Positions 21,201-56,643 of a DNA stretch of 64,000 nucleotides are shown one piece after another. Below the pieces are notes generated by a model that searched no databases, had not been told where the DNA came from, and saw nothing but the letters and a program-made list of their open reading frames with translations. The stretch's first letter is position 1, and every line of letters begins with the position of its first letter. This DNA comes from Cyanobacteriota bacterium (lineage in GTDB: Bacteria; Cyanobacteriota; Cyanobacteriia; Cyanobacteriales; Nostocaceae): the NCBI GenBank assembly GCA_046045965.1, contig JBJOKS010000002.1, positions 1 to 64,000 of the forward strand, in the 5' to 3' direction. The translations under genes and the position numbers were made by a program.

Positions 21201-22810
21201 AAATACCTAATACAATTGTCCATTTGTGGAGTGTTTCCCAATCACAAGCTTTATCTTGGGAAACAACTCAGAATTTAGGTTTTTACAGTCTTGTTTATCT
21301 AGCGCAAGCTATTGGACAACAGCAGATAAGTGATAAAATTCAACTGTTTGTGATTGCCAATCATCTGCATAATATTACAGGAAATGAAGAATTATATCCT
21401 GAAAAAACAACTATCTTGGGTGCTTGTAAAGTCATTCCTCAAGAATATCAGAATATAACTTGTCGTTTGGTTGATATTGTACTACCAACATTAGCCAGTG
21501 AAGACTTTATAGCGCAATTACTAGGAGAATTAACCGCAGAATCACAAGATGCTATCATTGCTTACCGTAATAATTACCGTTGGGTACAAACTTTTGAACC
21601 TATTTCTCTAGAACCAGCTAGCGCAGATAAAGTCAAGTTAAGAAAAAACGGAGTTTATCTAATTACAGGTGGTATGGGAGGTATGGGTTTCACATTAGCA
21701 GAATACCTTGCCAAAACCGTACAAGCTAAACTGATTTTATTAGGACGTTCGGTAACATCGGAAAATGCAAAAATTAAGGAATTAGAAGCTTTGGGTGCGG
21801 AAGTATTGGTAATTGCTGCTGATGTGACAAATGATGAGCAAATGCAAAATGTTATTGCTCAATCTTTAGAAAGTTTTGGTAAAATTAATGGTGTGATTCA
21901 TGCTGCTGGGGTTGCTGGTGCGGGAATGATTCAACTCAAAACCCCAGAAATTGCCGAAAGTGTTTTTGATCCTAAAGTTAAAGGCACAATAGTATTAAAT
22001 AATGTCCTCAAAAATCAAGATTTAGACTTTTTAGTTCTTTGTTCATCTTTAAGTTCAATTCAAGGAGGATTTGGACAGGTAGATTATTGTGCTGCCAATA
22101 CATTTTTAGATGCCTTTGCACAATGGAATAAAACAACAAATAACAGATTAACAATTGCTATTAATTGGGATGCTTGGCAACAAGTTGGCATGGCAGTTAA
22201 TACCAATGTTCCCAATGAAATCAAAAACTGGCGGGAAGAAACTTTAAAAAATGCTATTCTACCCACAGAAGGAATAGATGTCTTTAGCCGCATTTTAGCT
22301 AATTCACTACCACAAGTTCTACCACAAGTTATAGTTTCTACCCAAGATTTACAAACAGGGATTGGGCAACTTAACCAATTGATTGTATCTTTATCAATTG
22401 CTCAAAAACCAGCAAATACTGTTCAAGTATCTGCTAGTAGACATTCACGTACTCTGCAAGAAAATACTTATGTAGCTCCTCGTAACGAAATTGAACAAAC
22501 TATTGTGAATATCTGGGAAGAACTCATAGGTATTGAAAAAGTAGGGATTCACGATAACTTCTTTGAATTAGGGGGACATTCTTTATTAGCAGTCCAAACT
22601 ATATCCCGGATTCGAGAAACTTTTCAAATTGAATTACCACTGCGTACCCTTCTCTTTGATGCTCCTACAGTTAACGAATTATCTAATATTATCATTGCAA
22701 AACAACCACAATCAGAAGAACTTGATGAAATAGCGCAGCTATTAGCAGAAGTAGAAAATCTTTCCTATGCAGAACTACAAAAACAACTAGCTCAAGAAAC
22801 AGCAATATGA
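18254..22810 (+). CDS. Type I PKS module KS-AT(malonyl)-KR-ACP
   Basis: KS TACSTS and HGTGT; AT GHSIG and HAFHS; KR GGMGGMG and YCAAN; carrier LGGHSL; no DH, ER or MT seen. Confidence 0.93.
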   Translation: MESIAIIGISGRFPGAKNITEFWQNLYDGVEAISQFSDEELIAAGVDSLLLNNPNYIKVGSVLEDIDLFDAGFFGFNPKEAEMTDPQHRLFLECAWEALENAGYDVQRCESRIGVYAGASLNNYLSFNLNIDQIGSAHSFQKLIGNDKDFLSTRVSYKLNLTGPSLTIQTACSTSLVATALACQSLLNYQCDMALAGGASVRVPQKTGYLHQEGGILSPDGHCRAFDAKAQGTVIGNGVGVVLLKRLSDAIADSDHIYAVIKGSAINNDGSSKVGYTAPSVNGQAEAIAEAIALADIEPETITYIETHGTGTALGDPIEISALTNVFRAETDKKGFCAIGSVKTNIGHLDAAAGVTGLIKTALSLQHKLIPPSLNFEQPNPEIDFANSPFYVNTKLTEWNTNHIPRRAGVSSLGIGGTNAHVILEEAPEQVKNQKSKVKNQYLLCLSAKTDSALETTTENLVQHLKQNPDLDLADVAYTLQVGRSIFNYRRFVVCQNIQEAINTLENPDNQQVLTHFEEPTKRAITFMFSGQGSQYVNMGKELYENEPTFREQVDSCCLLLEPYLGLDLRAVIYPQDSEKQATVEQLKQTSLAQPALFVIEYALAQLWISWGISPQAMIGHSIGEYVAACLAGIMSLKDALNIVAVRGKLMQQISPGAMLSVSASANEIKDLITENLDLAVINSPSLCVISGTNQAIDELQEKLTTLNIEFRRLHTSHAFHSFMMEEMLDSFIAEVTKVKLNPPQIPFISNLTGTWITPEQATSPNYWAQHLRQTVNFSAGLSVLLQETESILLEVGPGRTLCSLVKQHTQQAAGQVVLPSLRHPQEEKSDINFLLNILGRLWLAGVEINWSGYYSHEQRYRVPLPTYPFERQRYWIEPEIQKPVINKAGKKANIDEWFYIPSWKRVPIIKTKDINSGCSLIFVDESSIGSELGQRFQELGQDVITVKVGEIFKQVDSDIYTINPKQADDYHQLLRQLREEGKIPNTIVHLWSVSQSQALSWETTQNLGFYSLVYLAQAIGQQQISDKIQLFVIANHLHNITGNEELYPEKTTILGACKVIPQEYQNITCRLVDIVLPTLASEDFIAQLLGELTAESQDAIIAYRNNYRWVQTFEPISLEPASADKVKLRKNGVYLITGGMGGMGFTLAEYLAKTVQAKLILLGRSVTSENAKIKELEALGAEVLVIAADVTNDEQMQNVIAQSLESFGKINGVIHAAGVAGAGMIQLKTPEIAESVFDPKVKGTIVLNNVLKNQDLDFLVLCSSLSSIQGGFGQVDYCAANTFLDAFAQWNKTTNNRLTIAINWDAWQQVGMAVNTNVPNEIKNWREETLKNAILPTEGIDVFSRILANSLPQVLPQVIVSTQDLQTGIGQLNQLIVSLSIAQKPANTVQVSASRHSRTLQENTYVAPRNEIEQTIVNIWEELIGIEKVGIHDNFFELGGHSLLAVQTISRIRETFQIELPLRTLLFDAPTVNELSNIIIAKQPQSEELDEIAQLLAEVENLSYAELQKQLAQETAI
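19544..19576 (+). repeat. In-frame (G/A)TCAAAA heptamer array in the KS-AT linker
   Basis: GTCAAAA-ATCAAAA-GTCAAAA-GTCAAAA-ATCAA, encoding VKNQKSKVKNQ. Confidence 0.8.
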
Positions 22811-23895
22811 AATTCAGTATTCTCTACTTTTCCGGTGATGGTTCAACAACAGAATCAGATAAATATAAACTGTTACTAGAAACAGCTAAATTGGCTGACA
22901 AAAATGGGTTTACAGCCGTATGGACTCCCGAACGCCATTTTCATCCTTTCGGGGGTTTGTATCCCAATCCTTCGGTAATTAGTGCAGCTTTGGCAATGAT
23001 AACTGAGAACATTCAACTGAGATCAGGTAGTGTTGTCATGCCATTACAACATCCTGTTAGAGTTGCTGAAGAATGGGCAGTAGTTGATAATTTATCTGGT
23101 GGTAGAGTTGGACTTTGTTTTGCACCTGGTTGGCACGCTGATGATTTTTTATTACGTCCAGAAAATTACACTGAACGTAAAGAAATTATGTGGCGTGACA
23201 TCGAGATTTTACAAAATCTTTGGCAAGGTAAAGAAAGTGAATTTGTTAATGGTTCAGGTAATAAAGTTAAGGTAAAAACATTTCCTCGACCCATACAACC
23301 TGAAGTACCAATTTGGGTTACTTGTCAAGCAGATTCTACGTTTATTGGTGCAGGTAAAATAGGTGCTAATGTTTTAACTTCTTTATTATATGCAACTATT
23401 GATGATTTAGCCCAGCAAATATCCCTATATCGTCGAACTTTGGCACAATATGGACATGATCCAAAAAGTTGCAAAGTTTCTTTAATGATGCACACCTATA
23501 TAGGAGATAATGAACAATTAGTTAAACAACAAGTAAAGCGACCTTTTTGTAATTACCTGAAAACACATTTTGGCTTAGTTGAAACCTTAGCTAAACGCAT
23601 CAACTTTCAATTCAGTCCTGAAAATTTTACAGAAGAAGACAGACAACAGCTTTTAGAATTTGCCTTTGAGCGATATTTCCAACAAGGTAGAGTGTTAATT
23701 GGTACGCCAGAAACTTGTCGTCAAACAATTGATCGCTTAACAGAAATTGGTGTAGATGAAATAGCTTGTTTGGTTGATTTTGGCTTGGAATTTAATACAG
23801 TAATGACAAGCTTGAATAAATTAACAGACTTCAAGCAAAACTATCAGTCAATAAAAAACATAAGTAAATATTCTAGTCTCAGCTTATTTGGGTGA
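22807..23895 (+). CDS. Stand-alone luciferase-like flavin monooxygenase (natural-product type)
   Basis: AVWTPERHFHPFGGLYPNPSV and RVAEEWAVVDNLSGGRVG motifs; ATGA overlap with the PKS gene. Confidence 0.92.
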   Translation: MKFSILYFSGDGSTTESDKYKLLLETAKLADKNGFTAVWTPERHFHPFGGLYPNPSVISAALAMITENIQLRSGSVVMPLQHPVRVAEEWAVVDNLSGGRVGLCFAPGWHADDFLLRPENYTERKEIMWRDIEILQNLWQGKESEFVNGSGNKVKVKTFPRPIQPEVPIWVTCQADSTFIGAGKIGANVLTSLLYATIDDLAQQISLYRRTLAQYGHDPKSCKVSLMMHTYIGDNEQLVKQQVKRPFCNYLKTHFGLVETLAKRINFQFSPENFTEEDRQQLLEFAFERYFQQGRVLIGTPETCRQTIDRLTEIGVDEIACLVDFGLEFNTVMTSLNKLTDFKQNYQSIKNISKYSSLSLFG

Positions 23896-23902
23896 ATTAA
23901 TT

Positions 23903-26900
23903 ATGAAAGATATAAATGAAAGAATTGCCGCCTTATCCCCCGAACAACGAGCATTGTTTGAAATGCGGCTGAAGCAAAAAAATTTACAGATTAAAAAATC
24001 AACATCAATTCCGAAAAGAACAGCATCGGATATTTTAACGTTATCTTTAAGTCAAGAGAGGTTGTGGTTACTGCATCAACTACAACCAGATACACCTTTA
24101 TATAATGAATCTAGCCTGTTGCGTCTGACAGGTGTGCTTAATACTATAGCTTTAGAAAAAAGTATTAATGAAATTATTAACAGGCACGAAATTCTCCGCA
24201 CTAGCTTTCAGATTGTAGATGAGCAAACTTTACAAGTTATTGCTCCTCAAGTTACATTTAAACTAACAATTGTTGAATTACCAACCTACTCAGAAACAGA
24301 AGTAAATCAAATTGTCACAGAAAAAGCTCGTCAACCTTTTGCTCTGAGCCAAGCACCACTGTTTCGGGGTATGCTAATTCGTATTAGTGAGCAAGAACAT
24401 ATTTTGCTACTTACTAAGCATCACATTATTTCTGATGGTTGGTCATGGCAAATATTTTATCGAGAATTAGCAGTATTATACCAAGGTGTCTGTCAAAATG
24501 TTCCGGCAAAATTGCCAGAATTACCTATTCAATACGCAGATTTTGCACTGTGGCAAAGACAAGATTTACATGAGAAATCCCATCAGCTTAATTATTGGCA
24601 GCAGCAACTCAAAGATGTACCACCAATTCTCAATTTACCAACAGATTATCCCCGTCCTGCACAGCAAAGCTTTAAAGGTGCGCGGGCAACTATTATAATT
24701 CCGCAAATACTAACAAATGCACTCAAATCTTTAAGTCAACAGGAAGGCGTTACCCTGTTTATGGTATTGTTGGCAGCCTTTAAAACCCTGCTTTACCGTT
24801 ACACAGGACAGACAGATTTATTAGTTGGGACTCCCGTTGCCAACCGCACACACAGCGAAATTGAGAATTTACTTGGATGTTTTGTTAACACTTTAGTTTT
24901 ACGGACTGAAGTATCTGGAGAATTGAGTTTTAGAGATTTGGTAAAACGAGTCCGCGAGACTGCTTTAGCTGCTTATACTCATCAAGAATTGCCCTTTGAA
25001 CAGCTAGTTAAAGAACTACAACCGGAACGAACATTAAGCCACACTCCTCTATTTCAGGTGATGTTCGTCTTCCAAGATGCACCAATGTTAGCTCTACAAA
25101 TGCCAAATTTAACCTTATCTCCTTTAATGATAGATAACGGAACTGCTAAGTTTGATTTAACATTATATGTGGAAGATACAAAGGAAGAGTTAATAGGGTT
25201 TTTGGAATATAATACCGAGTTATTTAATAGTGACACCGTTAATCGTATGGTGGGACATTTACAAACTTTATTAGAGGGGATAATTGCTAATTCTGATCAA
25301 TGTATTTCTAAGTTGCCATTATTAACACCTTCTGAGCAGCATCAGTTATTAGTAGAATTTAACCAAAATAAATTAAAAATTCCACAGAACCAGTTTGAAC
25401 AATGCCTACATCATTTAATTGAAGCACAAGTAGAAAAAACACCTGATGCTATTGCAGTAGTTTTTGAAAATGAAAAACTTACTTATAAAGAATTAAATCA
25501 ACGTGCCAATCAATTAGCACATTACTTACAATTTTTAGGAATTAAACTAGAGGAGCGAATTTGTATTTGTTTAGAACGTTCCCCAGAAATGATAGTAGGA
25601 CTTTTAGGAATATTAAAAGCTGGTTGTGCTTATGTTCCAGTAGATCCTAATTATCCCCTAGAGCGTTTAGCTTTTCTATTAGCAGATTCCCAAGCATCAC
25701 TATTATTAACACAACAAAAAATATTAACAAAAATATCGGCATATCAAGGTCAAATTATTTGTTTAGATAGTGATTGGGAAAGGATAGCAGAATCTACACA
25801 AGATAACCCAATTACCAACATTAAACCTGATAGTTTAGCTTATATAATTTACACTTCTGGTTCTACAGGAAAACCCAAAGGAGCAATGAACACCCATCGG
25901 GGAATTTGTAATCGTCTCCTGTGGATGCAAAAAGTATATCAATTAACAGCAGATGATACTGTACTGCAAAAAACTCCTTTTAGTTTTGATGTATCAGTAT
26001 GGGAATTTTTCTGGACTTTAATCACAGGCACTCGTTTAGTAATTGCCCAACCAGAAGGACACAAAGATAGTACATATTTAGTTAATTTAATCTCCCAAGA
26101 AAGTATTACCACTCTACATTTTGTACCGTCAATGCTTCAGGTCTTCTTAGAAACTCCAGGAGTAGAAAAATTAAAATCTATCAAGCGGGTTATTTGTAGT
26201 GGTGAGGCTCTACCTTTCGCACTTCAACAACGCTTTTTTGATACTTTAGATGCCGAACTACATAATCTTTATGGACCAACAGAAGCCGCGATAGATGTTA
26301 CCTTCTGGAAGTGTCAAAAAGACAGTGATAAATCTATAGTTCCCATTGGTCGCCCAATTACCAACAACCAAATTTATTTATTAGATTCCCATTTACAACC
26401 AGTACCTATTGGCGTTCCTGGAGAATTACATATTGGTGGGGTAGGAGTAGCTAGAGGATATTTAAATCGGTCAGATTTAACCAAGGAAAAATTCATTCCT
26501 AATCCTTTTAGTAATCAACCAGAAAGTCGCCTTTACAAAACTGGAGACTTAGCAAGATATTTACCAGATGGTAATATTGAATATTTAGGAAGAATAGATA
26601 ATCAAGTCAAACTCAGAGGTTTTAGAATTGAATTAGGAGAGATTGAATCAGTATTATGTAAACATTCTGCTGTGCGGGAAGCTGTGGTTATTTTGCAGGA
26701 AAATAAATCTCTTGCCGCTTATATAGTTGTTCATGACAACGCTGCTTATTCTATTAATGAACTGCGAAATTATTTACAGAAACACTTACCAGAATATATG
26801 ATCCCTTCTGTGTTTGTGTTACTAGATAGTTTACCATTAACACCTAATGGTAAAATAGATCGTCGAGCATTACCAACGCCTGAACACACTCACCCAGAAT

Positions 26901-28621
26901 TAACACAAACTTTTATTCCTCCCAGTAACCCAACTGAAGAAATATTAGTAGAAATTTGGGCGAAAGTTTTGGGAATAGAACAAGTAGGTATTCACGATAA
27001 CTTTTTTAATTTAGGAGGACATTCTTTATTAGCAACTCAAGTCATTTCCCAAATACGAAAAGCATTAGGGGTAGAAATACCACTACGTCATTTATTTGCA
27101 TCACCCACAGTCTTTCAATTTGCTAAACATATAGAACAGGCAATTAATGAAAAAACAGAATTAAATTCATTAACCTTAATACCTGTTGACAGAAATACAG
27201 AATTACCGCTATCTTTTGGACAGCAAAGATTATGGTTTATTCATCAATTAGATCCTAAATCAACAGCCTATAATGGTTCTGATGTTGTGAAAATACAAGG
27301 TAAATTAGATATTACAGCATTAGAATCAAGCCTTAACGAAATTGTGCGCCGACATGAGGTTTTACGGACTTGCTTTGCAGTTGTTGAAGGGCGACCAATT
27401 CAGAAAATTATTCCCGAATTTAAAATACCTTTACCAATTGTAGATTTACAGAATTTACCAGTAATTGAAAAAGAAAAAGAAGCGCAAAGATTAGAGTTAG
27501 AAAATGCCCAGATACCTTTTGATTTATCACAAATTCCTCTATTGCGATTTGTGTTATTACGTCTCACTCAAGATGAATACATTTTGTTAGTAGCGACTCA
27601 TCATATTATCTCTGATGCTTGGTCAGCAGCAGTGTTAATTAAAGAGGTATCAATACTTTATCAAGCCTTTATTAATGGCGAAAATTCCCCTTTACCAGAG
27701 TTACCAATTCAATACGCTGATTATGCAGTTTGGCAACAACAATGGTTACAGGGTGAGAGACTTAATCATCAATTAAATTACTGGAAAAAACATTTAAAAA
27801 ATGCTAGAATAATTTTAGAATTACCAACTGATAAACCACGCAACAAACTACAAACTTCTTCAGGTAAAAAACACTTTTTTACCCTATCTTCAACTCTATC
27901 TAATAAGTTAAAATCTCTCAGTCAGCAAAAAGGAGTCACTTTATTTATGACTCTGCTGGCAGCTTTTAATACCTTGCTTTACCACTATACACAGCAAGAA
28001 GATATACTTGTAGGTTCTCCTATTGCTAACCGTAACCGCAGTGAATTAGAAGGGTTAATTGGCTTTTTTGTCAACACTTTAGTATTACGCACTAACCTTG
28101 CTCATAACCCTACTTTTCAAGAGTTATTACAACAGGTGAAAGAAACTGCTTTAGGAGCTTATGCACACCAAGATTTACCTTTTGAAAAGTTAGTAGCAGA
28201 ACTACAACTAGAGCGTACTTTAAATCATTCACCGCTATTTCAAGTATGGTTTGTTCTCCAAAATGCACCCAAATCAGATTTGAAATTAGACGGTTTAAAT
28301 CTGAGCATTTTAGAAGGTGAAAGTGGCACTGTTCGTCATGATTTAAAGCTGCAATTAACAGAAACACCCGAAGGTTTACAAGGTTTTTTTGAGTATAAAA
28401 CTGATTTATTTCATGCCACTACTATTAACCGGATGACAGTTGTTTTAGAAACACTACTCACAACTGTTGTAGAACAACCTAATATTCAACTTGACCAACT
28501 GGTAAAACTATTACAAGAAACAGAAAAACAACAACAAATCCGCCAAAATCAAGAATTACAAAAAAACAGGATTCAGAAATTAGGTAAAATAGAACGCAAA
28601 ACAATTATTGGCAACGATTAA
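23903..28621 (+). CDS. NRPS C-A(Ser)-T-C
   Basis: Likely start MKDINERIAALSPEQR (docking helix); C HHIISDG; Ser-type A (FDVSVWEF, TTLHF, VICSG, EAAID); second C HHIISDA at the C-terminus. Confidence 0.92.
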   Translation: MKDINERIAALSPEQRALFEMRLKQKNLQIKKSTSIPKRTASDILTLSLSQERLWLLHQLQPDTPLYNESSLLRLTGVLNTIALEKSINEIINRHEILRTSFQIVDEQTLQVIAPQVTFKLTIVELPTYSETEVNQIVTEKARQPFALSQAPLFRGMLIRISEQEHILLLTKHHIISDGWSWQIFYRELAVLYQGVCQNVPAKLPELPIQYADFALWQRQDLHEKSHQLNYWQQQLKDVPPILNLPTDYPRPAQQSFKGARATIIIPQILTNALKSLSQQEGVTLFMVLLAAFKTLLYRYTGQTDLLVGTPVANRTHSEIENLLGCFVNTLVLRTEVSGELSFRDLVKRVRETALAAYTHQELPFEQLVKELQPERTLSHTPLFQVMFVFQDAPMLALQMPNLTLSPLMIDNGTAKFDLTLYVEDTKEELIGFLEYNTELFNSDTVNRMVGHLQTLLEGIIANSDQCISKLPLLTPSEQHQLLVEFNQNKLKIPQNQFEQCLHHLIEAQVEKTPDAIAVVFENEKLTYKELNQRANQLAHYLQFLGIKLEERICICLERSPEMIVGLLGILKAGCAYVPVDPNYPLERLAFLLADSQASLLLTQQKILTKISAYQGQIICLDSDWERIAESTQDNPITNIKPDSLAYIIYTSGSTGKPKGAMNTHRGICNRLLWMQKVYQLTADDTVLQKTPFSFDVSVWEFFWTLITGTRLVIAQPEGHKDSTYLVNLISQESITTLHFVPSMLQVFLETPGVEKLKSIKRVICSGEALPFALQQRFFDTLDAELHNLYGPTEAAIDVTFWKCQKDSDKSIVPIGRPITNNQIYLLDSHLQPVPIGVPGELHIGGVGVARGYLNRSDLTKEKFIPNPFSNQPESRLYKTGDLARYLPDGNIEYLGRIDNQVKLRGFRIELGEIESVLCKHSAVREAVVILQENKSLAAYIVVHDNAAYSINELRNYLQKHLPEYMIPSVFVLLDSLPLTPNGKIDRRALPTPEHTHPELTQTFIPPSNPTEEILVEIWAKVLGIEQVGIHDNFFNLGGHSLLATQVISQIRKALGVEIPLRHLFASPTVFQFAKHIEQAINEKTELNSLTLIPVDRNTELPLSFGQQRLWFIHQLDPKSTAYNGSDVVKIQGKLDITALESSLNEIVRRHEVLRTCFAVVEGRPIQKIIPEFKIPLPIVDLQNLPVIEKEKEAQRLELENAQIPFDLSQIPLLRFVLLRLTQDEYILLVATHHIISDAWSAAVLIKEVSILYQAFINGENSPLPELPIQYADYAVWQQQWLQGERLNHQLNYWKKHLKNARIILELPTDKPRNKLQTSSGKKHFFTLSSTLSNKLKSLSQQKGVTLFMTLLAAFNTLLYHYTQQEDILVGSPIANRNRSELEGLIGFFVNTLVLRTNLAHNPTFQELLQQVKETALGAYAHQDLPFEKLVAELQLERTLNHSPLFQVWFVLQNAPKSDLKLDGLNLSILEGESGTVRHDLKLQLTETPEGLQGFFEYKTDLFHATTINRMTVVLETLLTTVVEQPNIQLDQLVKLLQETEKQQQIRQNQELQKNRIQKLGKIERKTIIGND

Positions 28622-28839
28622 CTATACTGAGATATCAAAAATATGAATTTAAAAACATTCAAAAGAAAATCAATTACTACCCAGATCCCCGACTTCTGTG
28701 ATCAATTTATAATTTATGGATACCATCAATAAAAGAAGTCGGGGATCTTATCGCCTCGCCTCACCTGAATCATTACCAATTAACTATAGGGAGATATCAA
28801 AAATATGAACTTAAAAACATTCAAAAGAAAATCAATTAC
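28617..28839 (+). repeat. 61-bp direct repeat (28617-28677 / 28779-28839) flanking a 15-bp inverted repeat (28683-28697 / 28734-28748)
   Basis: Copies differ at 3 positions; AGATCCCCGACTTCT...AGAAGTCGGGGATCT lies between them. Confidence 0.92.
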
Positions 28840-29812: not shown

Positions 29813-29847
29813 TATTGGAAATAAATTTAATTAATTAGAGATAAATT

Positions 29848-34518: not shown

Positions 34519-34523
34519 ACAAT

Positions 34524-40800: not shown

Positions 40801-42481
40801 TTTACAAGCTGTTTTTGCTACATCACGCAATCCAACAGAAGAAATTTTAGTGCAAATATGGTCTGAAGTTCTCCGGTTAGACAATGTGGGAATTAACGAT
40901 AACTTTTTTGAGTTAGGTGGAGATTCAATTCTCAGTCTACAGGTGATTGCTAAAGCTAATCAGGCTGGTTTACAACTAACTCCTAAACAGATTTTTGAAT
41001 ATCAAACAATTGCCGATTTAGCATTAGTAGCAAGTACAAATACAAAAATTGCCACTGAACAAGGCATTGTTACAGGTTATCTCCCCTTAACTCCTATTCA
41101 ACATTGGTTTTTTGATCAAGAACTGCTTGATTCTCATCATTGGAATCAGTCAGTAATGTTAGAGGTTGATCACACTTGTAACCATATTTTATTAGAGCAG
41201 GTGGTAAAACAATTAATTCTGCATCATGATGCTTTACGCTTGCAGTTTGTGAGAACAGAATTTAGTTGGAAATCAATAATTAGTGAACCTGAAACCATAA
41301 CACCTTTTTCTATCATTGATTTATCACACCTACCTAAAAATGAGCATCAACAAACAATAGAGATTGAAGCTAATTCACTACAAGCTGGTCTTGACTTATC
41401 CCAGGGTAAAATAGTTCAGGTTGCTTTATTTAAACTGGGTGAAAGTCAACCTCATAGATTGTTAATTATCATTCACCATTTAGCAATTGATGGAGTTTCC
41501 TGGCGAATTTTACTTGAAGACCTGCAAACAGCTTACCAACAACTTGTTCAGGGTGAAAAAATCCAATTACCTGCTAAAACAACTTCAGTCAAACAGTGGG
41601 CGGAAAAATTGCAAGAATATGCTAACTCAGAAACTGTAAAATCAGAAATTAATTACTGGTTATATCAGCATAATCAAAATATTTCTCCTTTACCTGTTGA
41701 CTATTCTCATGGAGAAAATACTGTAGATTTAGCTTGTACAGTTTCAGTTACTCTCACCCAGGAAGAAACAACATCTTTATTACATGAAGTCCCTGTAACT
41801 TATCAAACACAAATTAATGATATTTTGTTAACTGCCCTGGTACAAACTTTTCAACAATGGACTGGTAACAGTTCACTGTTAGTAAATTTGGAAGGTCATG
41901 GACGAGAAGATATCCTAGAAAATGTTGACTTATCCCGTACTGTTGGCTGGTTTACTACCATCTTCCCAGTTTTATTGGATATCACAGCAGTTTTTGAACC
42001 AGGAATAGCATTAAAAACAGTTAAAGAACAATTGCGTAGTATTCCCCACAAAGGTATTAATTATGGAGTTTTGCGTTATCTCAGTGAAAAGTCAATTACT
42101 GAACAATTGCAAGCTTTACCCCAAGCAGAAATAACATTTAACTACTTGGGTCAATTTGACCAAATAATTTCTCAAACATCAACATTTAAACCTGCGGTTG
42201 AGTCTACAGGAAATAATCAAAGTCCAAGGGGCAAGCGTAACATTTTGCTAGAAATTAATAGCTTAATTGTAGGTGGACAGTTGCGGCTGAATTGGACTTA
42301 TAACAAAGCATTACATCAACCAGAAACAGTAGAAAAACTGGCGCAGGAATATCTTAAAAAATTGCGATCGCTCATTTTTCATTGTCTGTCACCTAACGCT
42401 GGTGGCTTTACACCCTCAGACTTTCCACAAATGAATTTTAGTCAAGCAGAACTTGACCAATTACTTACCGAACTTGATTAA
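37808..42481 (+). CDS. NRPS C(LCL)-A(Gln-like)-T-E
   Basis: MHHIVSDGWS; A code read as DAWQFGLIDK (Gln type); PCP LGGDSI; E HHLAIDGVSW, EGHGRE; TPSDF tail. Confidence 0.9.
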   Translation: MDLSAEKRDLLALLLEEEDIEYTPVQTISPRKNTDKLELSFAQKRLWILNQLEPGNPFYNIPAALKLTGKLDVDALELSFNEIIQRHEVLRTKFNVVDGQPILEIVPQQTIILPIVDLREIALTEREAKVQNLADTEFRKPFNLASEPLLRSTLLKLDKAEYILLLTMHHIVSDGWSTDILVREVAALYECFTQGKPSPLPQLTIQYTDYAIWQRKWLQGEVLETQLNYWKQKLAGNLPILELPTDRPRPKIKTYQGAKQYFQLSPELSQALKTLSQKQDCTLFMTLLAAFKVLLYRYTGLEDIIIGSPIANRNRAEIESLIGFFVNTLVLRTDLSEHPTFVDLLNRVRETTLSAYAHQDLPFDVLVEELQPQRNLSHTPLFQVMFVLQNAPISAVELSGLTVEPLTSEGGNAKFDLTLLAEETDSGIRVGWEYNTNLFNAETITRIGNNFQTLLEGIVANPQHKITELPLLTPKEQHQLLIDWNNNQLEYDLDKCIHQLFAEQVERTPDAVAVVFENQQLTYRELNHQANQLACYLQKIGVKPDILVGICVERSLEMVVGLLGILKAGGAYLPLDPNYPQERLEFMVKDADISVLLTQKKLVNLLPQHQTEIVCLDSYEVINSDPLCVLASLSEVHPDNLAYLIYTSGSTGKPKGVMISHRALCNHTLWMQSEFPVTESDKVMQKTPFSFDASVWEFYAPLVTGGKLILAKPDGHKDTTYLVDLIAKENITILQLVPSLLRVLLEEKNLKNCQSLRRVFCGGEVLSVDLQNKLFQILPDVELCNLYGPTEGTIDTTYYKCKYEDKLSIVPIGRAITNTQVYLLDRHLQPVPIGVPGEIYIGGAGLAKGYLNRPDLTAEKFISNPFLTGTKLYKTGDLARYLADGNIEFIERIDGQVKLRGFRIELGEIETQLNQHLQVKQTVVLVREDIPGEKRLVAYIVPNQKHSPTVSELRNFLKQNLPDYMIPTVFILLDNLPFLPNGKIDRKALPAPDNARPDLQAVFATSRNPTEEILVQIWSEVLRLDNVGINDNFFELGGDSILSLQVIAKANQAGLQLTPKQIFEYQTIADLALVASTNTKIATEQGIVTGYLPLTPIQHWFFDQELLDSHHWNQSVMLEVDHTCNHILLEQVVKQLILHHDALRLQFVRTEFSWKSIISEPETITPFSIIDLSHLPKNEHQQTIEIEANSLQAGLDLSQGKIVQVALFKLGESQPHRLLIIIHHLAIDGVSWRILLEDLQTAYQQLVQGEKIQLPAKTTSVKQWAEKLQEYANSETVKSEINYWLYQHNQNISPLPVDYSHGENTVDLACTVSVTLTQEETTSLLHEVPVTYQTQINDILLTALVQTFQQWTGNSSLLVNLEGHGREDILENVDLSRTVGWFTTIFPVLLDITAVFEPGIALKTVKEQLRSIPHKGINYGVLRYLSEKSITEQLQALPQAEITFNYLGQFDQIISQTSTFKPAVESTGNNQSPRGKRNILLEINSLIVGGQLRLNWTYNKALHQPETVEKLAQEYLKKLRSLIFHCLSPNAGGFTPSDFPQMNFSQAELDQLLTELD

Positions 42482-42498
42482 ATAAAAGGTAACTATTC

Positions 42499-45400
42499 AT
42501 GAATAAAAAAAATATTGAAAATATTTATCCTCTTTCGCCTACCCAACAAGGCATACTTTTTCATACTCTCCGCGCACCAGAATCAGGAGTTTATGTAGTT
42601 CAAAGCTGTTACACATTTAGCCAATCTATTAACATCGCTGCTTTTAAACAAGCTTGGCAACAAGTCATCAATCAGCACCCAATTCTCCGCACTTCTTTTC
42701 ACTGGAAACAGCACAAAGAACCGTTTCAAGTAGTACATAAATCTGTAGAATTACCTTGGCATCAACAGGACTGGCAAAACTTATCTGTCACTGCACAGCC
42801 AGAAAAATTAACAGCATTCTTAGCAGCAGATCGCCAACAAGGATTTGATATTTCTCAACCATCTTTAATGCGGTTGATATTGATTCAAATAGCCCCAGAA
42901 ACTTACCATTTTATTTGGAGTAGCCATCATTTAATTTTAGATGGGTGGTCTACAGCTTTGGTACTAAATCAGGTTTTTCAAGCTTACGAAGCATTATGTA
43001 AAGGACAAGTTTTTCCATTACCACATTCTCGTCCATATCAAGATTATATTGCTTGGTTACAACAGCAAAATTTAGCGAAAGCAGAAGAATTTTGGCGGAA
43101 ACACCTCAAAGGTTTTACTGCACCGACTCAACTAAAAGTTAATACTTTTGCTAATTCAATTACAGGATGTGGGGAAAAATCAATTAAGCTATCATCAGCA
43201 ACAACCACAGCATTACAATCATTTGCACGCCAACAAAAATTAACCTTAAATACTTTAATTCAAGGAACTTGGGCTATCCTTCTCAGTCGTTATAGTGGTG
43301 AAAAAGATATTGTTTTTGGATCTACTTCTGCTGGTCGTCCACCTAAGTTAATTGGTTCAGAATCAATGGTAGGTTTATTTATTAACACCTTACCAGTGCG
43401 TGTACAAATATCTGGAAACGAATTATTAATTCCCTGGTTGCAAAAACTTCAGGCGCAACAAATAGAAGCCCAGCAATATGAATATAGTCCTCTAGTTCAA
43501 GTCCAAGGATGGAGTGAAGTTCCGAGAGATTTGCCTTTATTTGAAACAATTTTAGTATTTGAAAACTACCCTGTAGATGCTGCCTTAAAAGCAAAAGCTA
43601 CAGAGATGCAAATCCATGATATTCGGTCTGCGGAATCAACAAATTATTCCCTTACTCTCTCAGTAGGGACAAGTACAGAATTAAAGTTAGAGATTTTATA
43701 TGATCGTAGTCGTTTTCATGCAGAAACTATAACTAGCATTTTAGGACATCTGCAAACATTATTGGAGGGTATTGTTGCCAATCCTCACCAATCTCTATCT
43801 TCATTACCTTTATTGACATCAGCCGAAATACATCAACAATTGGTGGAATGGAATAATACCCAAAGCAGCTATCCTCAAAATAAGTGTATCCATCAATTAT
43901 TTGAGAAACAGGTAGAAAAAACACCAGATGCAGTAGCGGTGGTGTTTAAAAATGACCAAATCACCTATCAACAACTCAACCAAAAAGCGAATCAACTAGC
44001 ACATTTTTTACAAAAATTGGGTGTAAAACCAGAAATACCAGTTGCCATTTGTATGGAACGTTCCCTGGAAATGGTAATTGGTGTATTAGGAATATTAAAA
44101 GCAGGTGGTGCTTATGTTCCCCTTGATCCTGCTTATCCAAAAGAAAGATTGAAATATATGTTTACCGATGCGGCAATATCGGTAATGCTCACTCAAAATA
44201 AATTATTAGCAAAATTGAGTGAATATCAAGAAAAAATTATTTGTTTAGATACTGACTGGGAGAATATTTCTCAAGAAAGTCAAGCAAATCCCTCAATTAA
44301 TATACAAGCTAATAACTTAGCTTATATCATTTACACTTCTGGTTCTACAGGAAAACCAAAAGGAGTAATGATTGAACATCAATCGTTAATAAATTTTACC
44401 GAAGCTGCCAAAGTTAAATACCAAATTCAACCGGGAGAAAGAATCTTACAATTTGCATCCATTAGTTTTGATGCTGCTGTTGAAGAAATTTATCCTTGTT
44501 TAACATCTGGTGCAACATTGGTACTGCGTACAGATGAAATGCTGACTTCTCTGGCTAAATTTATGGAAAACTGCCGCAATTGGCAAATTACAGTTTTGGA
44601 TTTACCTACAGCATACTGGCATTTAATAGTTTCCGAATTAGCAAATCACAACTTAACTTTACCAGAGTCATTAAGATTAGTCATTATTGGTGGAGAAAGC
44701 GCAATTCCTGAAAAAGTTGCAATTTGGCAACAGCAAGTAGGTACTTATCCTCAGTTAATTAATACCTATGGTCCAACAGAAACAACCGTAGTTGCCACCT
44801 ATTGTAATTTAACTACAACACAAATAAATGGGCAAGAAGTACCAATTGGTTGCCCTATTAATAATGTTCAAATATATCTCTTAGACCAGGACTTACAACC
44901 CTTACCTGTGGGTATACCTGGTGAAATCTACATTGGTGGTGCAGGTTTAGCAAGGGGTTATTTACACCGTCCTGAATTAACAGATGAAAAGTTTACACCC
45001 AATCCTTTTTTACCTGATGCTAAACTATATAAAACAGGAGATTTAGCTCGTTATCTTCCCAACGGTAATATTCAATTTATTGGACGTATTGATACTCAAA
45101 TAAAACTGCGCGGTTTTCGGATTGAACTAGGAGAAATTGAATCTGTTTTAATTCAACATCCAAATATTCAAGAAGCAGTAGTTACAGCGAGACAAAATAC
45201 CTTAGTAGGCTACATAGTTGCTGATTCTCAAAATATACCCAGCAGCAGCGACATTCAAAACTTCCTCAAAGAAAAGTTGCCAGAATATATGATTCCTAAT
45301 GGATTTATATTCTTAGAAAATCTGCCACTAACAACTAATGGCAAAATTGACCATCAAGCCTTACCCGCAGCAGATACGTCTATAACAGAAAGGAAAAAGC

Positions 45401-46878
45401 TATTTAAAGAAGCACGAACTTCCTTAGAGAAGGAATTGCTAACAATCTGGCGGGAAATTTTGCATCGTCCCCAAATTAGCATTGATGAAAACTTTTTCGA
45501 TTTAGGTGGACATTCTTTATTAATAGTTCAGTTATTTGCCCGTATCCGTTCTGCTTTCCAAATAGATTTACCCCTACAGACTTTGTTTGAAGCACCAACT
45601 ATAGAAACTCTTGCAGCACAATTAGAAATAGCCCGTCAAGCTAAATTATCCTCAACAATTACTCTTACTAATTCTACCTTAGACCTCAAAACTGAAGCAG
45701 TTCTTGATCCCACAATTACAGTTGAGGGTAAATCAATTGAATATACAAATGAACCAACTTGTATATTTATCACAGGTGCAACAGGTTTCGTAGGTGCTTT
45801 TTTACTCGACGAACTTCTCAATCAAAGTCAAGCTGAAATTTATTGCTTGGTACGTGCTAATAATTTTGCAGAAGGTAAGCAAAAAATTTATCAAGCTTTA
45901 ACAGCATATTCAATTGGGAATGAATCACAAATTTCTCGAATTGTTCCAGTTTTAGGAGATTTATCTCAACCGCTTTTAGGTCTTTCCCCAGCACAGTTTA
46001 CAGCACTAGCTCAAAAAATAGATGTTATTTACCATAATGGTGCATGGGTACATCATACTTATCCATACTCCACACTCAAAACCGCTAATGTTTTAGGTAC
46101 GCAAGAAGTTTTAAGATTAGCTAGTGAAATTAAAATTAAACCTGTACATTTCATTTCGACTATTAGCGTTTTTTCTGCACCTATAGGTTCTGGAGTACAT
46201 CTAGTTCAAGAACAGTCTAACCTTGATGATTTTCCCATACCAGAAGGTGGTTATACCCAAAGTAAATGGGTTGCAGAACAGCTAATTAATATTGCAAGTA
46301 AACGTGGCTTACCAGTTTCTATTTATAGATTAGGGAGGGTATCAGGACATAGCAGAACAGGTGTATTTAATCCTAATGACTTTTTTTATCGCTTACTTAT
46401 TGGCTGCATTCAATTAGGAAAAGTCCCTAATGTAGACTATTTAGAAAATCTCGCTCCTGTAGATTATGTCAGCAAAGCAATAGTCAATTTATCCCAAAAA
46501 CAACAATCTTTAGGAAAAGCTTTTCACTTACTCAATTCTCATTATCTCGATTTAAATATGCTATTCAATAGCATTCGTGAATTTGGTTATCCAATACAAG
46601 CAATTTCTCAAGCACAGTGGTATGAAGAATTAGTAAAAATAGCAGAAAATTATCCAGACCATCCTTTATATCCATTGATACCATTTTTCATGCACTCTCA
46701 TCAAACTAAAAACTTAAAAGTATTAAAATTTGATTGTGAGCAAACATTAAATTCACTGGCTAACAGTTCCATTTTTTGTCCAAAAATAGATGGAAACCTC
46801 TGCAAAACTTATATCTCACACTTGATTAGTAGTGGTTTAGTCCAAAAACCACAAAAACTGCAAATTTCTGTAAATTAA
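42499..46878 (+). CDS. Terminal NRPS C(DCL)-A(Lys/Arg-like)-T-R (thioester reductase)
   Basis: WSSHHLILDGWS; A code read as DAEDIGTVVK (basic residue); R domain ITGATGFVG and YTQSK; no TE. Confidence 0.9.
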   Translation: MNKKNIENIYPLSPTQQGILFHTLRAPESGVYVVQSCYTFSQSINIAAFKQAWQQVINQHPILRTSFHWKQHKEPFQVVHKSVELPWHQQDWQNLSVTAQPEKLTAFLAADRQQGFDISQPSLMRLILIQIAPETYHFIWSSHHLILDGWSTALVLNQVFQAYEALCKGQVFPLPHSRPYQDYIAWLQQQNLAKAEEFWRKHLKGFTAPTQLKVNTFANSITGCGEKSIKLSSATTTALQSFARQQKLTLNTLIQGTWAILLSRYSGEKDIVFGSTSAGRPPKLIGSESMVGLFINTLPVRVQISGNELLIPWLQKLQAQQIEAQQYEYSPLVQVQGWSEVPRDLPLFETILVFENYPVDAALKAKATEMQIHDIRSAESTNYSLTLSVGTSTELKLEILYDRSRFHAETITSILGHLQTLLEGIVANPHQSLSSLPLLTSAEIHQQLVEWNNTQSSYPQNKCIHQLFEKQVEKTPDAVAVVFKNDQITYQQLNQKANQLAHFLQKLGVKPEIPVAICMERSLEMVIGVLGILKAGGAYVPLDPAYPKERLKYMFTDAAISVMLTQNKLLAKLSEYQEKIICLDTDWENISQESQANPSINIQANNLAYIIYTSGSTGKPKGVMIEHQSLINFTEAAKVKYQIQPGERILQFASISFDAAVEEIYPCLTSGATLVLRTDEMLTSLAKFMENCRNWQITVLDLPTAYWHLIVSELANHNLTLPESLRLVIIGGESAIPEKVAIWQQQVGTYPQLINTYGPTETTVVATYCNLTTTQINGQEVPIGCPINNVQIYLLDQDLQPLPVGIPGEIYIGGAGLARGYLHRPELTDEKFTPNPFLPDAKLYKTGDLARYLPNGNIQFIGRIDTQIKLRGFRIELGEIESVLIQHPNIQEAVVTARQNTLVGYIVADSQNIPSSSDIQNFLKEKLPEYMIPNGFIFLENLPLTTNGKIDHQALPAADTSITERKKLFKEARTSLEKELLTIWREILHRPQISIDENFFDLGGHSLLIVQLFARIRSAFQIDLPLQTLFEAPTIETLAAQLEIARQAKLSSTITLTNSTLDLKTEAVLDPTITVEGKSIEYTNEPTCIFITGATGFVGAFLLDELLNQSQAEIYCLVRANNFAEGKQKIYQALTAYSIGNESQISRIVPVLGDLSQPLLGLSPAQFTALAQKIDVIYHNGAWVHHTYPYSTLKTANVLGTQEVLRLASEIKIKPVHFISTISVFSAPIGSGVHLVQEQSNLDDFPIPEGGYTQSKWVAEQLINIASKRGLPVSIYRLGRVSGHSRTGVFNPNDFFYRLLIGCIQLGKVPNVDYLENLAPVDYVSKAIVNLSQKQQSLGKAFHLLNSHYLDLNMLFNSIREFGYPIQAISQAQWYEELVKIAENYPDHPLYPLIPFFMHSHQTKNLKVLKFDCEQTLNSLANSSIFCPKIDGNLCKTYISHLISSGLVQKPQKLQISVN

Positions 46879-46898
46879 TTCACATCCTCACAACTATC

Positions 46899-48323
46899 AT
46901 GAAGAAAAAATTTTTTAGCTTACAACAAACCTTATCTCCTACCGAGGTTGTACCTCAAAATACACCAGAAAGTTACTTGTCTCAATTCATTAAAAATTAT
47001 AATGCTAGGACAAAAACATCAAAACAAATTACACAAGACTATCGAGCTACTTTAGCTGATAGCCGCAATCCCTATGGGTTTAGTTTGCCTTTGAAAGAGC
47101 TTTGTTATCCCATTGTCGCGCAAAAATCTTTAGGTTCAAGAATTTGGGATGTTGACGGTAATGAATATATAGATTTGGTTATGGGATTAGGTATCAATCT
47201 TTTTGGACATAACCCACCTTTTATTAAACAAGCTTTACTTGAACAACTAGACCAAGGTATTCACATTGGACCACAAACAGAATTAGCTGGTGAAGTTGCG
47301 GAGTTAATCTCAGACCTGACAGGAATGGAAAGAGTAACTTTTAGTAATACAGGCACAGAAGCAGTAATGACAGCAATTCGTATTGCTAGAGCCGCAACAA
47401 AGCGTTATAAAATAGCCATCTTTTCTGGTTCATATCATGGTCATTCTGATGGAACTTTAGTAAAATTGCAAGAATTAGATGGAAAATTGCAAACAGTTCC
47501 TTTAACTTGTGGAGTTCCAAAAAGTATTGTTGAAAATGTGTTGATTTTGGATTATGGAAATCCTCAATCATTGGAAGTAATTAAAACTCATGGCAAAGAA
47601 TTAGCTGCTGTTTTAGTTGAACCTGTACAAGATGGTTGTCTCGATTTACAACCAAAAGAATTTCTGCATCAATTGCGGCAATTAACCACAGAGTTAGGTA
47701 TAGTTTTGATTTTCGATGAAATGATTACTGGGTTTAGAATTCATCCAGGTGGAGCGCAAGCATGGTTTGATGTTCAGGCAGATATAGCTACTTACGGAAA
47801 GATTGTTGGTGGAGGAATGCCAATTAGTGTGATTGCTGGTAAAGCTGTTTATATGGATAAAATTGATGGCGGTATGTGGAACTATGGAGATTCTTCTTTT
47901 CCCCAGGTAGAAACAACATTTTTTGCAGGTACATATTGTAAACATCCTTTATCTTTGGCAGCAGCAAAAGCTGTACTCAAGTATATGCAATCTCAAGGTT
48001 CTCAGTTGCAAACAAAATTGAATCAAAAAACAGCAGAGTTTGTAAAAACTTTAAATGATTATTTTGCAGTATTGGGTTTACCTATAAAAATGACACATTT
48101 TGGTTCTTTATTTGGTCCTGCTAGTTCTGGAGTGTCAGCCAGTTCCAATACAGATTCAGGAATAGGTTTAAGTTTATTAACCTATCATTTAATTCACAAA
48201 GGTATCTTGATTAGAGGTAGTAGCGGTTTTTTATCTACTGCTCATACCGATGAAGATATTAATTACATTATTCAAGCTGTTAAGGATAGTATCAGTGAAT
48301 TGGCTTCAGGAGGATTATTGTAA
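46899..48323 (+). CDS. Class III PLP aminotransferase (GSA-aminomutase-like, PKS/NRPS AMT type), stand-alone
   Basis: WDVDGNEYID, SNTGTEAV, LIFDEMITGFR and DIATYGKIVGGG (catalytic Lys). Confidence 0.9.
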   Translation: MKKKFFSLQQTLSPTEVVPQNTPESYLSQFIKNYNARTKTSKQITQDYRATLADSRNPYGFSLPLKELCYPIVAQKSLGSRIWDVDGNEYIDLVMGLGINLFGHNPPFIKQALLEQLDQGIHIGPQTELAGEVAELISDLTGMERVTFSNTGTEAVMTAIRIARAATKRYKIAIFSGSYHGHSDGTLVKLQELDGKLQTVPLTCGVPKSIVENVLILDYGNPQSLEVIKTHGKELAAVLVEPVQDGCLDLQPKEFLHQLRQLTTELGIVLIFDEMITGFRIHPGGAQAWFDVQADIATYGKIVGGGMPISVIAGKAVYMDKIDGGMWNYGDSSFPQVETTFFAGTYCKHPLSLAAAKAVLKYMQSQGSQLQTKLNQKTAEFVKTLNDYFAVLGLPIKMTHFGSLFGPASSGVSASSNTDSGIGLSLLTYHLIHKGILIRGSSGFLSTAHTDEDINYIIQAVKDSISELASGGLL

Positions 48324-48361
48324 TTGCAAAAATATTCTTGTGTAAAACTTTTGTATAAAAG

Positions 48362-49210
48362 TTGATGAATTTGGCAAAAAAATTATTTGAGGATACAAAA
48401 ATCATGAAAATAACGCCTACTGAACGCATTAATCAACCATCAACAACAGAATTTTGGAATGAGTTTGTAGTTCCAGACAAACCAGTAATTATCACTGGAG
48501 TTGCTAATGAGTGGAAAGCTTGTGAACAGTGGACACCAGAGACATTTAAATCCATGTTTGGAGATGTAATTGCTCCTTTAAGAGCAAGTGATGATGAAAT
48601 AGAGGTATTCTTTGGTGGTTTGGCAGAAAAAAAACTCATTTCTATAGCTGATTATATAGACAGTATTTTGTCGGCAACTCAAGATGGTGAGAAACGGTTA
48701 TATTTAGGTAATATTCCCTTTGATTCTCCTATAGCTAAAGCCCATCTTGACAAAATCAGACCGGATTTTGAATTTCCTAATTATTTTCCAGACAATACTG
48801 GTAATGATTTACGTCTCTGGATTGGAGGAGCTAATCAAAAATCAACTATTCACAACGACAATTATCATAATCTTAATGCACAGATATTTGGTGAAAAAAC
48901 ATTTTTATTGTTTGCCCCAGAAGAGTATCAAAAATTATATGCTACAAAGATGGATGATGAATTATGGTCAAGTCCTATAGACCCGCAAAAGCCGAATTTA
49001 TCAAAATATCCATTATTTGATGATGTTACTGGATTAGAAGCTGTACTTACTCCAGGAGATATACTTTTTATTCCTGCTTTTTGGTGGCATCAAGCACGGT
49101 CAATTACACCAGCTATTAACGTTAATATGTGGGTTTATACTCATAAAATATGTGAAATTTGGGAACAACATCCTGTTTTGAGCGGAAATATGGCTAATGT
49201 TGTTTCGTAA
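48362..49210 (+). CDS. JmjC/cupin-8 Fe(II)/2OG hydroxylase (FIH-like); start may be ATG 48404
   Basis: KPVIITG, LWIG, HxD (IHND) and distal His (PGDILFIPAFWWH). Confidence 0.88.
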   Translation: MMNLAKKLFEDTKIMKITPTERINQPSTTEFWNEFVVPDKPVIITGVANEWKACEQWTPETFKSMFGDVIAPLRASDDEIEVFFGGLAEKKLISIADYIDSILSATQDGEKRLYLGNIPFDSPIAKAHLDKIRPDFEFPNYFPDNTGNDLRLWIGGANQKSTIHNDNYHNLNAQIFGEKTFLLFAPEEYQKLYATKMDDELWSSPIDPQKPNLSKYPLFDDVTGLEAVLTPGDILFIPAFWWHQARSITPAINVNMWVYTHKICEIWEQHPVLSGNMANVVS

Positions 49211-55420: not shown

Positions 55421-55483
55421 GAAAATTTGGTAATTGGTAATTGGTAATTAATAATGTATTCGCTATTTTCTATGCTTTCTTCA

Positions 55484-55525
55484 CTGTCACCTGTCACCTG
55501 TCACCTGTCACCTGTCACCTGTCAC
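55484..55525 (+). repeat. (CTGTCAC)6 heptamer array; (TTGGTAA)3 nearby at 55427-55447
   Basis: Read directly in the intergenic region. Confidence 0.95.
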
Positions 55526-56599: not shown

Positions 56600-56608
56600 C
56601 TAGTTCAA

Positions 56609-56643
56609 TTTTGGATTTTAGATTTTGGATTTTAGATTTTGGA
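56609..56643 (+). repeat. (TTTT[G/A]GA)5 heptamer array
   Basis: Alternating TTTTGGA/TTTTAGA units. Confidence 0.9.

Follow-up and report, generated by a model that had tools for sequence, protein, structure and literature searches.

A cyanobacterial siderophore cluster in which a luciferase-like monooxygenase and a JmjC hydroxylase may build two of three iron ligands

The stretch analysed here, referred to as the window, comprises 64,000 nucleotides of a Cyanobacteriota bacterium of the Nostocaceae (GenBank assembly GCA_046045965.1, contig JBJOKS010000002.1, positions 1 to 64,000, forward strand). It contains a complete polyketide synthase-nonribosomal peptide synthetase (PKS-NRPS) cluster flanked by a TonB-dependent receptor and FecCDE/ExbBD/TonB genes. 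Judged from these genes, the product is likely a linear hexadentate Fe(III) lipopeptide siderophore. A first-pass annotation had found too few canonical iron ligands in the cluster and had proposed that a luciferase-like monooxygenase (LLM), a JmjC hydroxylase, or a terminal diamine supplies the missing ones, or that the product binds 2:1 or prefers another metal. The features of the locus are listed below (positions in the window; strand in brackets).

8218..9231 (-): periplasmic siderophore-binding protein (PF01497)
9249..12218 (-): AMIN-domain TonB-dependent siderophore receptor (Pfam; TIGR01783, 453 bits, cut-off 223.5)
12730..12751 (+): conserved imperfect palindrome between the receptor and FAAL genes, candidate FurA-type iron box
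12922..18225 (+): FAAL-ACP-C-A[Ser]-T starter (domain and A-code reading)
18254..22810 (+): PKS of KS-AT-KR-ACP order; the AT motif is of the malonyl type, and the catalytic motifs of the KR are intact
22807..23895 (+): LLM of the MupA/Atu3671 family; predicted to alpha-hydroxylate the Ser-ketide (ligand slot 1)
23888..28621 (+): C-A[Ser]-T-C
28805..29812 (+): stand-alone TauD-type Asp beta-hydroxylase (PF02668; single copy genome-wide)
29848..34518 (+): interface module C-A[Asp]-T-E, predicted to give beta-hydroxy-D-Asp (ligand slot 2)
34524..37808 (+): C-A[Orn]-T, variable spacer
37808..42481 (+): C-A[Gln]-T-E, D-Gln, predicted JmjC substrate (ligand slot 3)
42499..46878 (+): C-A[Lys]-T-R, reductive release
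46899..48323 (+): class-III aminotransferase (PF00202), predicted to turn the aldehyde into an amine
48404 (probable start)..49210 (+): JMJD5-like JmjC Fe/2-oxoglutarate hydroxylase, predicted D-Gln hydroxylase
49345..50679 (+): MFS exporter
52464..54581 (-): PvdQ/CcsQ-like acylase (PF01804; NF051460 below cut-off), predicted to remove the fatty acyl starter
54632..60611 (.): FecEDC, ExbD, ExbB and TonB uptake genes

The acylase has its nucleophile Ser motif. The region downstream of the binding protein (3968-7991) holds a DUF1636 gene and two half-genes for ABC exporters, which belong to the uptake or export cassette. The FAAL start and the adjoining TonB uptake cassette are arranged as in cyanochelin clusters. 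The six A domains read, in order, Ser, Ser, Asp, Orn, Gln and Lys. The Asp modules of cyanochelin B have the identical Asp code, and its Ser module differs from the Ser code here by one residue; the Gln code is that of scytocyclamide LxaC1. The Orn and Lys/Arg-like modules named in the first-pass annotation are present (34524-37808 and 42499-46878); these two labels, like Thr, Ala, Val and Glu-like as used for related clusters, are presumed assignments. The His label for modules of relatives was taken from PMC12283262. The C domain of the Asp module is degenerate, without the HHxxxD motif, and all other C domains carry an ordinary one. The stand-alone TauD lies between a C domain and this inactive interface C ahead of the Asp A domain (23888-34518), the arrangement of interface-type Asp beta-hydroxylation. 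One TauD and one interface module are found, as the single Asp module with a beta-hydroxylase recognised before; thus, the cluster encodes one standard ligand.

Among named homologues, those of Anabaena sphaerica FACHB-251 are the closest (JmjC 96%, LLM 93%). The one-Asp layout also occurs in seven other genomes (G001, G061, G072, G074, G643, G710, and G739) and is therefore not an assembly artefact. No RNA sequencing run was listed as containing the locus; DNA contigs from four runs cover most of 28500-48400 piecemeal, and none spans it. At 28678-28756 and 30535-30572, numerous unrelated contigs match over a short stretch before diverging, which probably marks small dispersed repeats. One relative lacks 28627-28804.

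The 32 open reading frames of the window that were scanned include no gene for an N-monooxygenase, a formyltransferase, an acetyltransferase or catechol formation, in agreement with the first reading. In the source genome (92.2% complete), PF13434 gave three partial matches of at most 33 bits and no full-length Orn/Lys N-hydroxylase. As a benchmark, a true N-hydroxylase scored 290-410 bits over profile positions 2-338 (G171; 1 of 57 genomes in that search). The best PF13434 match among the 18 genomes of another search was 58 bits over 141 positions. Full-length matches were absent from all 17 JmjC-bearing genomes searched, six of them listed as 99-100% complete; the Gloeothece genome described below was outside this search. 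No IucA/IucC (NIS synthetase) was found in the source genome, where the control worked, and no AurF, for which the control was weak. The tyrosinase search was blank, as was its control. The best EntA match in the genome scored 156 bits (cut-off 300) and loading is by FAAL instead, unlike a catecholate pathway. FbnL and FbnM of the Dmaq siderophores were not found among the window open reading frames, and the terminal A code is Lys-type.

Two unlinked matches were considered and rejected. The best of the partial PF13434 matches, on contig C27, considered as a hidden N-hydroxylase, had only a weak oxidoreductase match in PDB; it lies beside folE, a COG0523 GTPase gene and thrS, putatively a zinc-regulated operon, which a further check did not confirm. 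A GNAT match on contig C50 resembles AAC(6')-type acetyltransferases below cut-off. The genome encodes four formyltransferases, namely PurN, Fmt, PurU, and one inside another NRPS-PKS. A large NRPS-PKS region (G000:C5:131882-222166) contains a formyltransferase-led protein of 4901 residues.

Hydroxamates made in trans by an unlinked N-hydroxylase, or iterative use of the Asp module, had been named as findings that would overturn the proposal for the two oxygenases. The genome is 92% complete, and one survey counts 21 cases of chelator genes located elsewhere than in the cluster (PMC12971057). Both routes are nevertheless very improbable and largely refuted, given the negative searches in the JmjC-bearing genomes and given that extra Asp, Asn, or His residues in relatives are always encoded as explicit modules, with release by an R domain and no TE.

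Related clusters were collected using JmjC, LLM, TauD, and aminotransferase queries. Aminotransferase matches were obtained in 225 of 389 genomes, and 13 high-scoring ones with neither oxygenase orthologue were fetched. An interface module was defined as a beta-hydroxy-Asp/Asn/His module. Fifty-two cluster stretches, including the window, were annotated; 14 were dropped and 38 complete ones were kept. The dropped stretches were either incomplete (G007, G062, G073, G163, G250, G308, and the second G074 cluster) or, within the part read, did not form a FAAL-to-R cluster bearing an interface module (G032, G079, G081, G164, G166, G241, and the second G071 cluster).

The number of interface modules varied with the two oxygenases. 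Clusters without LLM and JmjC had three interface modules (9 of 11) or two (2 of 11). Two were found in every LLM-only (9/9) and every JmjC-only cluster (8/8). With both enzymes, eight of ten clusters had one and the remaining two had two. Interface modules, LLM, and JmjC thus sum to three in 34 of the 38 clusters, as they do in cyanochelin B (Ox plus two Asp), which is outside the tally. These counts support a one-for-one replacement of interface beta-hydroxylation modules by the two oxygenases, and therefore LLM and JmjC likely build the two missing ligands, in line with the original proposal.

Trees were used to follow these changes. On the FAAL tree, the JmjC state changes seven times and the LLM state five times. 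Independent pairs changed in the predicted direction in a mean of 4.0/5 (JmjC, FAAL tree), 3.0/5 (LLM, R tree), and 2.5/4 (LLM, FAAL tree), and reversed pairs never occurred in these three tests. The trees used for the pairs are mosaic, and the naive permutation test ignores kinship.

His-type interface modules with their own TauD are found in many cyanobacterial clusters (e.g. L117-L119 and L029; carriers G064, G065, G067, G068, G069, G071, G483, G009, G011, G018, G111, G130, G193, G233, and G244) and predict beta-hydroxyhistidine siderophores, a ligand termed rare by one survey. An Asn-type interface module with an E domain, served by a single TauD in trans, occurs in seven LLM-only clusters (L147, L151, L156, L168, L171, L189-L190, and L192-L193) and predicts a beta-hydroxy-D-Asn ligand; in five of the seven, a C-T-C protein without an A domain lies just upstream of the Asn module. 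A methyltransferase using S-adenosylmethionine (L151:13907-14656) follows the aminotransferase in most JmjC-less clusters and suggests an N-methylated terminal amine. The window methyltransferase at 714-1451 was not counted as its counterpart, with 33% identity over 103 residues only.

The LLM scored 499.9 bits against TIGR04020 (curated cut-off 244.45), which places it in the MupA/Atu3671 family. Its best PDB match is the PuwE monooxygenase (6KET, E 2e-107), an enzyme assigned to the 2-hydroxy group of puwainaphycin (PMC4219810), and it is 45% identical to the cyanochelin B Ox domain. In cyanochelin B, an LLM-family Ox/KR module leads to a 2,3-diol, and photolysis cleaves between the diol carbons; its authors take the photocleavage as a sign of iron contact, yet describe this as unconfirmed (PMC12628792). 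KR identity is 58-87% in the LLM-adjacent module versus 45-52% in LLM-less JmjC clusters; the KR follows LLM presence. An LLM-made 2,3-diol ketide is therefore the reading preferred here. Alternatively, the LLM might catalyse an FbnE-type oxidative rearrangement to an alpha-hydroxycarboxylate, leaving the JmjC part unchanged. It shares the TIGR04020 family with Atu3671, and the two alpha-hydroxycarboxylates of fabrubactin are proposed to stem from FbnE (PMC12971057). However, the KR motifs of the PKS are intact and co-vary with the LLM, and PuwE and cyanochelin B, both cyanobacterial, yield simple 2-hydroxy acyl units (PMC4219810, PMC12628792), and such a rearrangement appears quite improbable. 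Beside the PKS-LLM pair in eight clusters lies a family-28 glycosyltransferase gene (L138:10556-11830 and matching genes in G073, G124, G131, G155, G220, G250, and G710), which suggests glycosylated siderophores. Genes resembling a set for a hydroxymalonyl or aminomalonyl extender lie beside the PKS at L144-L145 (G074) and L200-L202 (G308), and another route to an alpha-hydroxy ketide is conceivable.

In the JmjC protein, H150, D152, H229, K165, Y100, S147, and W139 are invariant in 37 aligned homologues. The Fe triad (HxD...H), the 2-oxoglutarate-binding Lys, Tyr, and Ser, and the JmjC fold are those of an Fe/2-oxoglutarate hydroxylase. The predicted structure (pLDDT 89) has JMJD5 as its closest solved fold (TM 0.76-0.79). 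E238 of JMJD5 binds the substrate Arg (PMC5862942); in a profile alignment, without residue-level superposition, it aligns to the invariant R60, with D63 and E65 nearby. The acidic residue of JMJD5-type arginyl C3 hydroxylases is missing at this position, which argues against a basic substrate. Cupin-8 enzymes have been proposed to hydroxylate D-residue modules in scytocyclamides (PMC7524897). The R60/N103/Q145/N151 fingerprint is absent from other cyanobacterial cupin-8 proteins at 26-33% identity. A second, distant JmjC group (26-32%) with different active-site residues is encoded directly after a PKS module in G244, G233, G111, and G308 (L205, L208, L212, and L201), with an Arg-type module upstream in three cases. 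In acidobacterial NRPS clusters (L040-L056 and L239-L256), the JmjC homologues share the active-site fingerprint of the window protein, and genes for CmlA-type diiron hydroxylases or TauD are frequent neighbours.

The epimerised Gln module, unmentioned in the first-pass annotation, is the key part of the JmjC argument. A Gln-type module was present in 17 of 18 JmjC clusters versus none of 20 clusters without JmjC. All 17 have an E domain and no interface domain, and the module is kept while neighbouring modules and the aminotransferase are swapped among JmjC clusters. The fragmented JmjC genomes G062 and G066 likewise carry it. In the 18th cluster, of Gloeothece citriformis PCC 7424, the JmjC gene (55%) lies in the uptake operon and two Asp interface modules are present. 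The penultimate D-module there is Glu-like, epimerised and non-orthologous, with an A domain outside the Gln clade. Other cultured carriers are Nostoc linckia FACHB-104, which combines LLM, Asp and Gln/JmjC, and Calothrix sp. NIES-2100 and Tolypothrix tenuis PCC 7101, which combine Asp, His and Gln/JmjC. The penultimate module of the nine LLM-only clusters is of the interface type and carries an E domain in eight; it stands where the window cluster has its epimerised Gln. Its code is one residue off the LxaK1 Asn code in seven of the nine, and therefore an alpha-hydroxy-amide seems tolerated in the penultimate slot. By domain, the 5' half of the window cluster is 71-93% identical to G285 and G262, versus 59-61% for R and aminotransferase, and the pattern is reversed against G064. 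Given this split, the window cluster appears to be a recombinant, with D-Gln and JmjC having taken over the slot of a beta-hydroxy-D-Asn or Asp.

Other residues were weighed as the third ligand. An Orn-type module occurs in 11 of 13 JmjC clusters and 3 of 20 without JmjC, and Orn was favoured at first as the JmjC substrate; it was dropped given Gly-type modules in its place in G001 and G074 (Ser-type in G643). Relatives differ in their last residue (Lys-, Ala-, Thr-, Val-, Gly-, or Orn-type), and an aldo-keto reductase takes the place of the aminotransferase in two JmjC clusters, G131 and G062. Because Orn, terminal Lys, and the aminotransferase are each replaced in some relatives, they are unlikely ligands, and the terminal diamine put forward in the first reading was likewise dropped. 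A ligand formed by a terminal 1,2-diamine or a derived imidazoline, or by JmjC hydroxylation of Orn/Lys as JMJD5 does for Arg, would find some support in the R domain plus aminotransferase being the usual family ending, in JMJD5 being the closest structure, and in some acidobacterial JmjC homologues that adjoin Lys-type D-modules. It is quite improbable, as clusters with a full set of three interface modules also have the aminotransferase, several JmjC clusters lack Orn and several lack terminal Lys, and E238 is replaced by Arg.

We consider it probable, though by no means assured, from these comparisons that LLM and JmjC both build ligands and that Gln is the JmjC target. Several observations weigh against this. 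Four of the 38 clusters are exceptions, with sums of four (G063 and G131) or two (G129 and G193). The sample was picked by similarity to the window cluster's own genes. The R-domain tree groups the JmjC clusters in a single clade (99/97), and therefore the Gln-JmjC link amounts to one origin plus the Gloeothece case. The pair tests were non-significant (median p 0.125, 0.25, and 0.25, in the order given above), and the single JmjC pair on the R tree gave p 1. Close LLM orthologues (74%) also occur in clusters that showed neither a TauD nor an interface module (G164, and G163, which is partial). The R60 fingerprint is also present in acidobacterial and Nonomuraea homologues at 41-50%; of eight such distant loci aligned, two have a Glx-type module, and none was seen in the other six, which are fragments. 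Finally, JMJD5 acts at C3 and the scytocyclamide products are 3-hydroxylated, and 3-hydroxylation would give a weaker six-membered chelate.

Alternatively, the LLM and JmjC hydroxyls may not both be ligands; the product would then have two good bidentate sites and bind 3:2 or 2:1, or complete the shell with backbone or amine donors. The single origin of the JmjC cassette, the pair tests, and the G129 and G193 sums of two fit this, as does cyanochelin C, which has two beta-hydroxy acids and a third ligand described as uncertain (10.64898/2026.07.24.740629). It is nonetheless unlikely: clusters with neither enzyme have three interface modules in 9/11, each enzyme lowers the count by about 0.77, and all four cells of the comparison are filled.

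Given that Gln is hydroxylated by JmjC, C4 is the site preferred, at slightly better than an even chance. Only C4 would give a five-membered alpha-hydroxy-carbonyl chelate like that of the replaced beta-hydroxy-Asn/Asp, and C4 suits Gln and Glu alike; 4-hydroxy-Gln would be an alpha-hydroxy-amide, the one-carbon homologue of beta-hydroxy-Asn. C3, which has enzyme precedent, is a clearly weaker but serious candidate, the amide nitrogen an improbable one, and any other site more improbable still. N-hydroxylation of the Gln amide by JmjC would yield a primary hydroxamate, the strongest ligand, and would fit the Gln linkage. The Gloeothece module, if its Glu-like label is right, has no amide nitrogen to oxidise, and we know of no Fe/2-oxoglutarate amide N-hydroxylase; this route has little likelihood. 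In a wider form of the preferred reading, the JMJD5-like JmjC subfamily would hydroxylate C4 of D-Gln or D-Glu, yielding a new ligand pair of 4-hydroxy-Gln and the alpha-hydroxy-acid 4-hydroxy-Glu, one carbon longer than beta-hydroxy-Asn/Asp, and four interchangeable cassettes (TauD-Asp/Asn, TauD-His, LLM-ketide diol, and JmjC-Glx) would be combined to a total fixed at three. Taken jointly, these propositions are possible but fall somewhat short of an even chance.

The promoter region points to iron. The palindrome at 12730-12751 is kept in 8/8 aligned promoters and resembles the FurA consensus in PMC4005646. With a matrix of six relatives, built without the window genome and G001, it ranked first of 66 genome matches, a site upstream of feoB second, and tonB/exbB ninth; other top matches lie near unrelated genes. 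The palindrome is likely a FurA-type iron box, and a preference for another metal, also raised in the first reading, is disfavoured by this motif shared with feoB and tonB/exbB.

The following pathway is proposed. Fatty acyl-Ser would be extended with malonyl, alpha-hydroxylated by the LLM and then reduced by the KR to a 2,3-diol. Ser, beta-hydroxy-D-Asp, Orn, D-Gln, and Lys would then be added. The R domain would free an aldehyde, which the aminotransferase would aminate to a 1,2-diamine, and JmjC would hydroxylate D-Gln, either carrier-bound or in the released product. Export would be by the MFS protein, and the acylase may strip the acyl chain. The predicted product is acyl-[4-amino-2,3,5-trihydroxypentanoyl]-Ser-(beta-OH-D-Asp)-Orn-(OH-D-Gln)-Lys reduced to a 1,2-diamine, with deacylation probable; its ligands would be the LLM-made diol ketide, beta-hydroxy-D-Asp, and the JmjC-hydroxylated D-Gln. 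The masses computed for the deacylated form are 755.389 ([M+H]+) and 808.301 (Fe complex); with a C12 acyl chain, [M+H]+ would be 937.556.

Among the closest known systems, crochelins are reportedly proteobacterial siderophores in which a Ser-plus-malonyl gamma-amino acid, lacking the alpha-hydroxyl, binds iron together with a hydroxamate. Cyanochelin B (Leptolyngbya sp. NIES-3755) shares with the window cluster the FAAL start, a PKS with LLM-family Ox and KR for a 2,3-diol, interface/TauD beta-hydroxy-Asp, reductive release, and a TonB cassette (PMC12628792). In contrast, the window cluster has one Asp, no thiazoline, a stand-alone LLM, and the diol on an amino-acid-derived ketide, and adds D-Gln, JmjC, an aminotransferase, and an acylase. 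Cyanochelin C (Myxacorys spp.) is alike in its FAAL-NRPS fusion, amide-linked acyl chain, PvdQ-like acylase, FetAB neighbours, and reductive release, but has beta-OH-Asp, DHABA, and an oxazoline, and the account available describes no PKS, LLM, or JmjC among its nine open reading frames (10.64898/2026.07.24.740629). Fabrubactins (Agrobacterium fabrum C58) resemble the window cluster in that an LLM-family monooxygenase, FbnE, is proposed for chelating alpha-hydroxy groups (PMC12971057), and differ in having Dmaq from DOPA; no Tyr/DOPA-type module was seen in the window cluster, which has beta-OH-Asp. The scytocyclamide cupin-8 proteins LxaF/LxaG and human JMJD5 share the PF13621 JmjC fold and Fe/2-oxoglutarate residues, and LxaF/LxaG are proposed, as is the window JmjC, to act at epimerised NRPS modules; unlike here, the (proposed) products are 3-hydroxy Leu, Asn, or Arg and not metal ligands (PMC7524897, PMC5862942). 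The window cluster has neither two beta-hydroxy-Asp (or Asp plus DHABA) modules nor a cyclisation domain for an N-terminal thiazoline/oxazoline. It works like the cyanochelins but falls outside them, as a new variant among cyanochelin-like siderophores.

Thirty-one cyanochelin-like clusters have been cited, with the acylase-linked ones mapped (10.64898/2026.07.24.740629), and members of the present family are probably among them. LLM-built ligands have already been proposed for fabrubactin (PMC12971057) and cyanochelin B (PMC12628792). A JmjC-made hydroxy-Gln/hydroxy-Glu ligand and the sum-of-three swap were absent from the literature searched, which left most subscription papers out of reach. 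Nearly all peptide metallophores use eight chelator types according to one survey (PMC12971057), and the third cyanochelin ligand has been described as unresolved (PMC12628792). The natural swap experiment described here supports a hydroxy-ketide ligand independent of a heterocycle, and points to a further Gln/Glu ligand, for which an enzyme, a substrate and an expected mass can be named and cultured carriers exist. If true, this would give metallophore mining two additional marker genes. More speculatively, replacing photolabile hydroxy-acids by amide or diol ligands could alter light-driven iron release to competitors.

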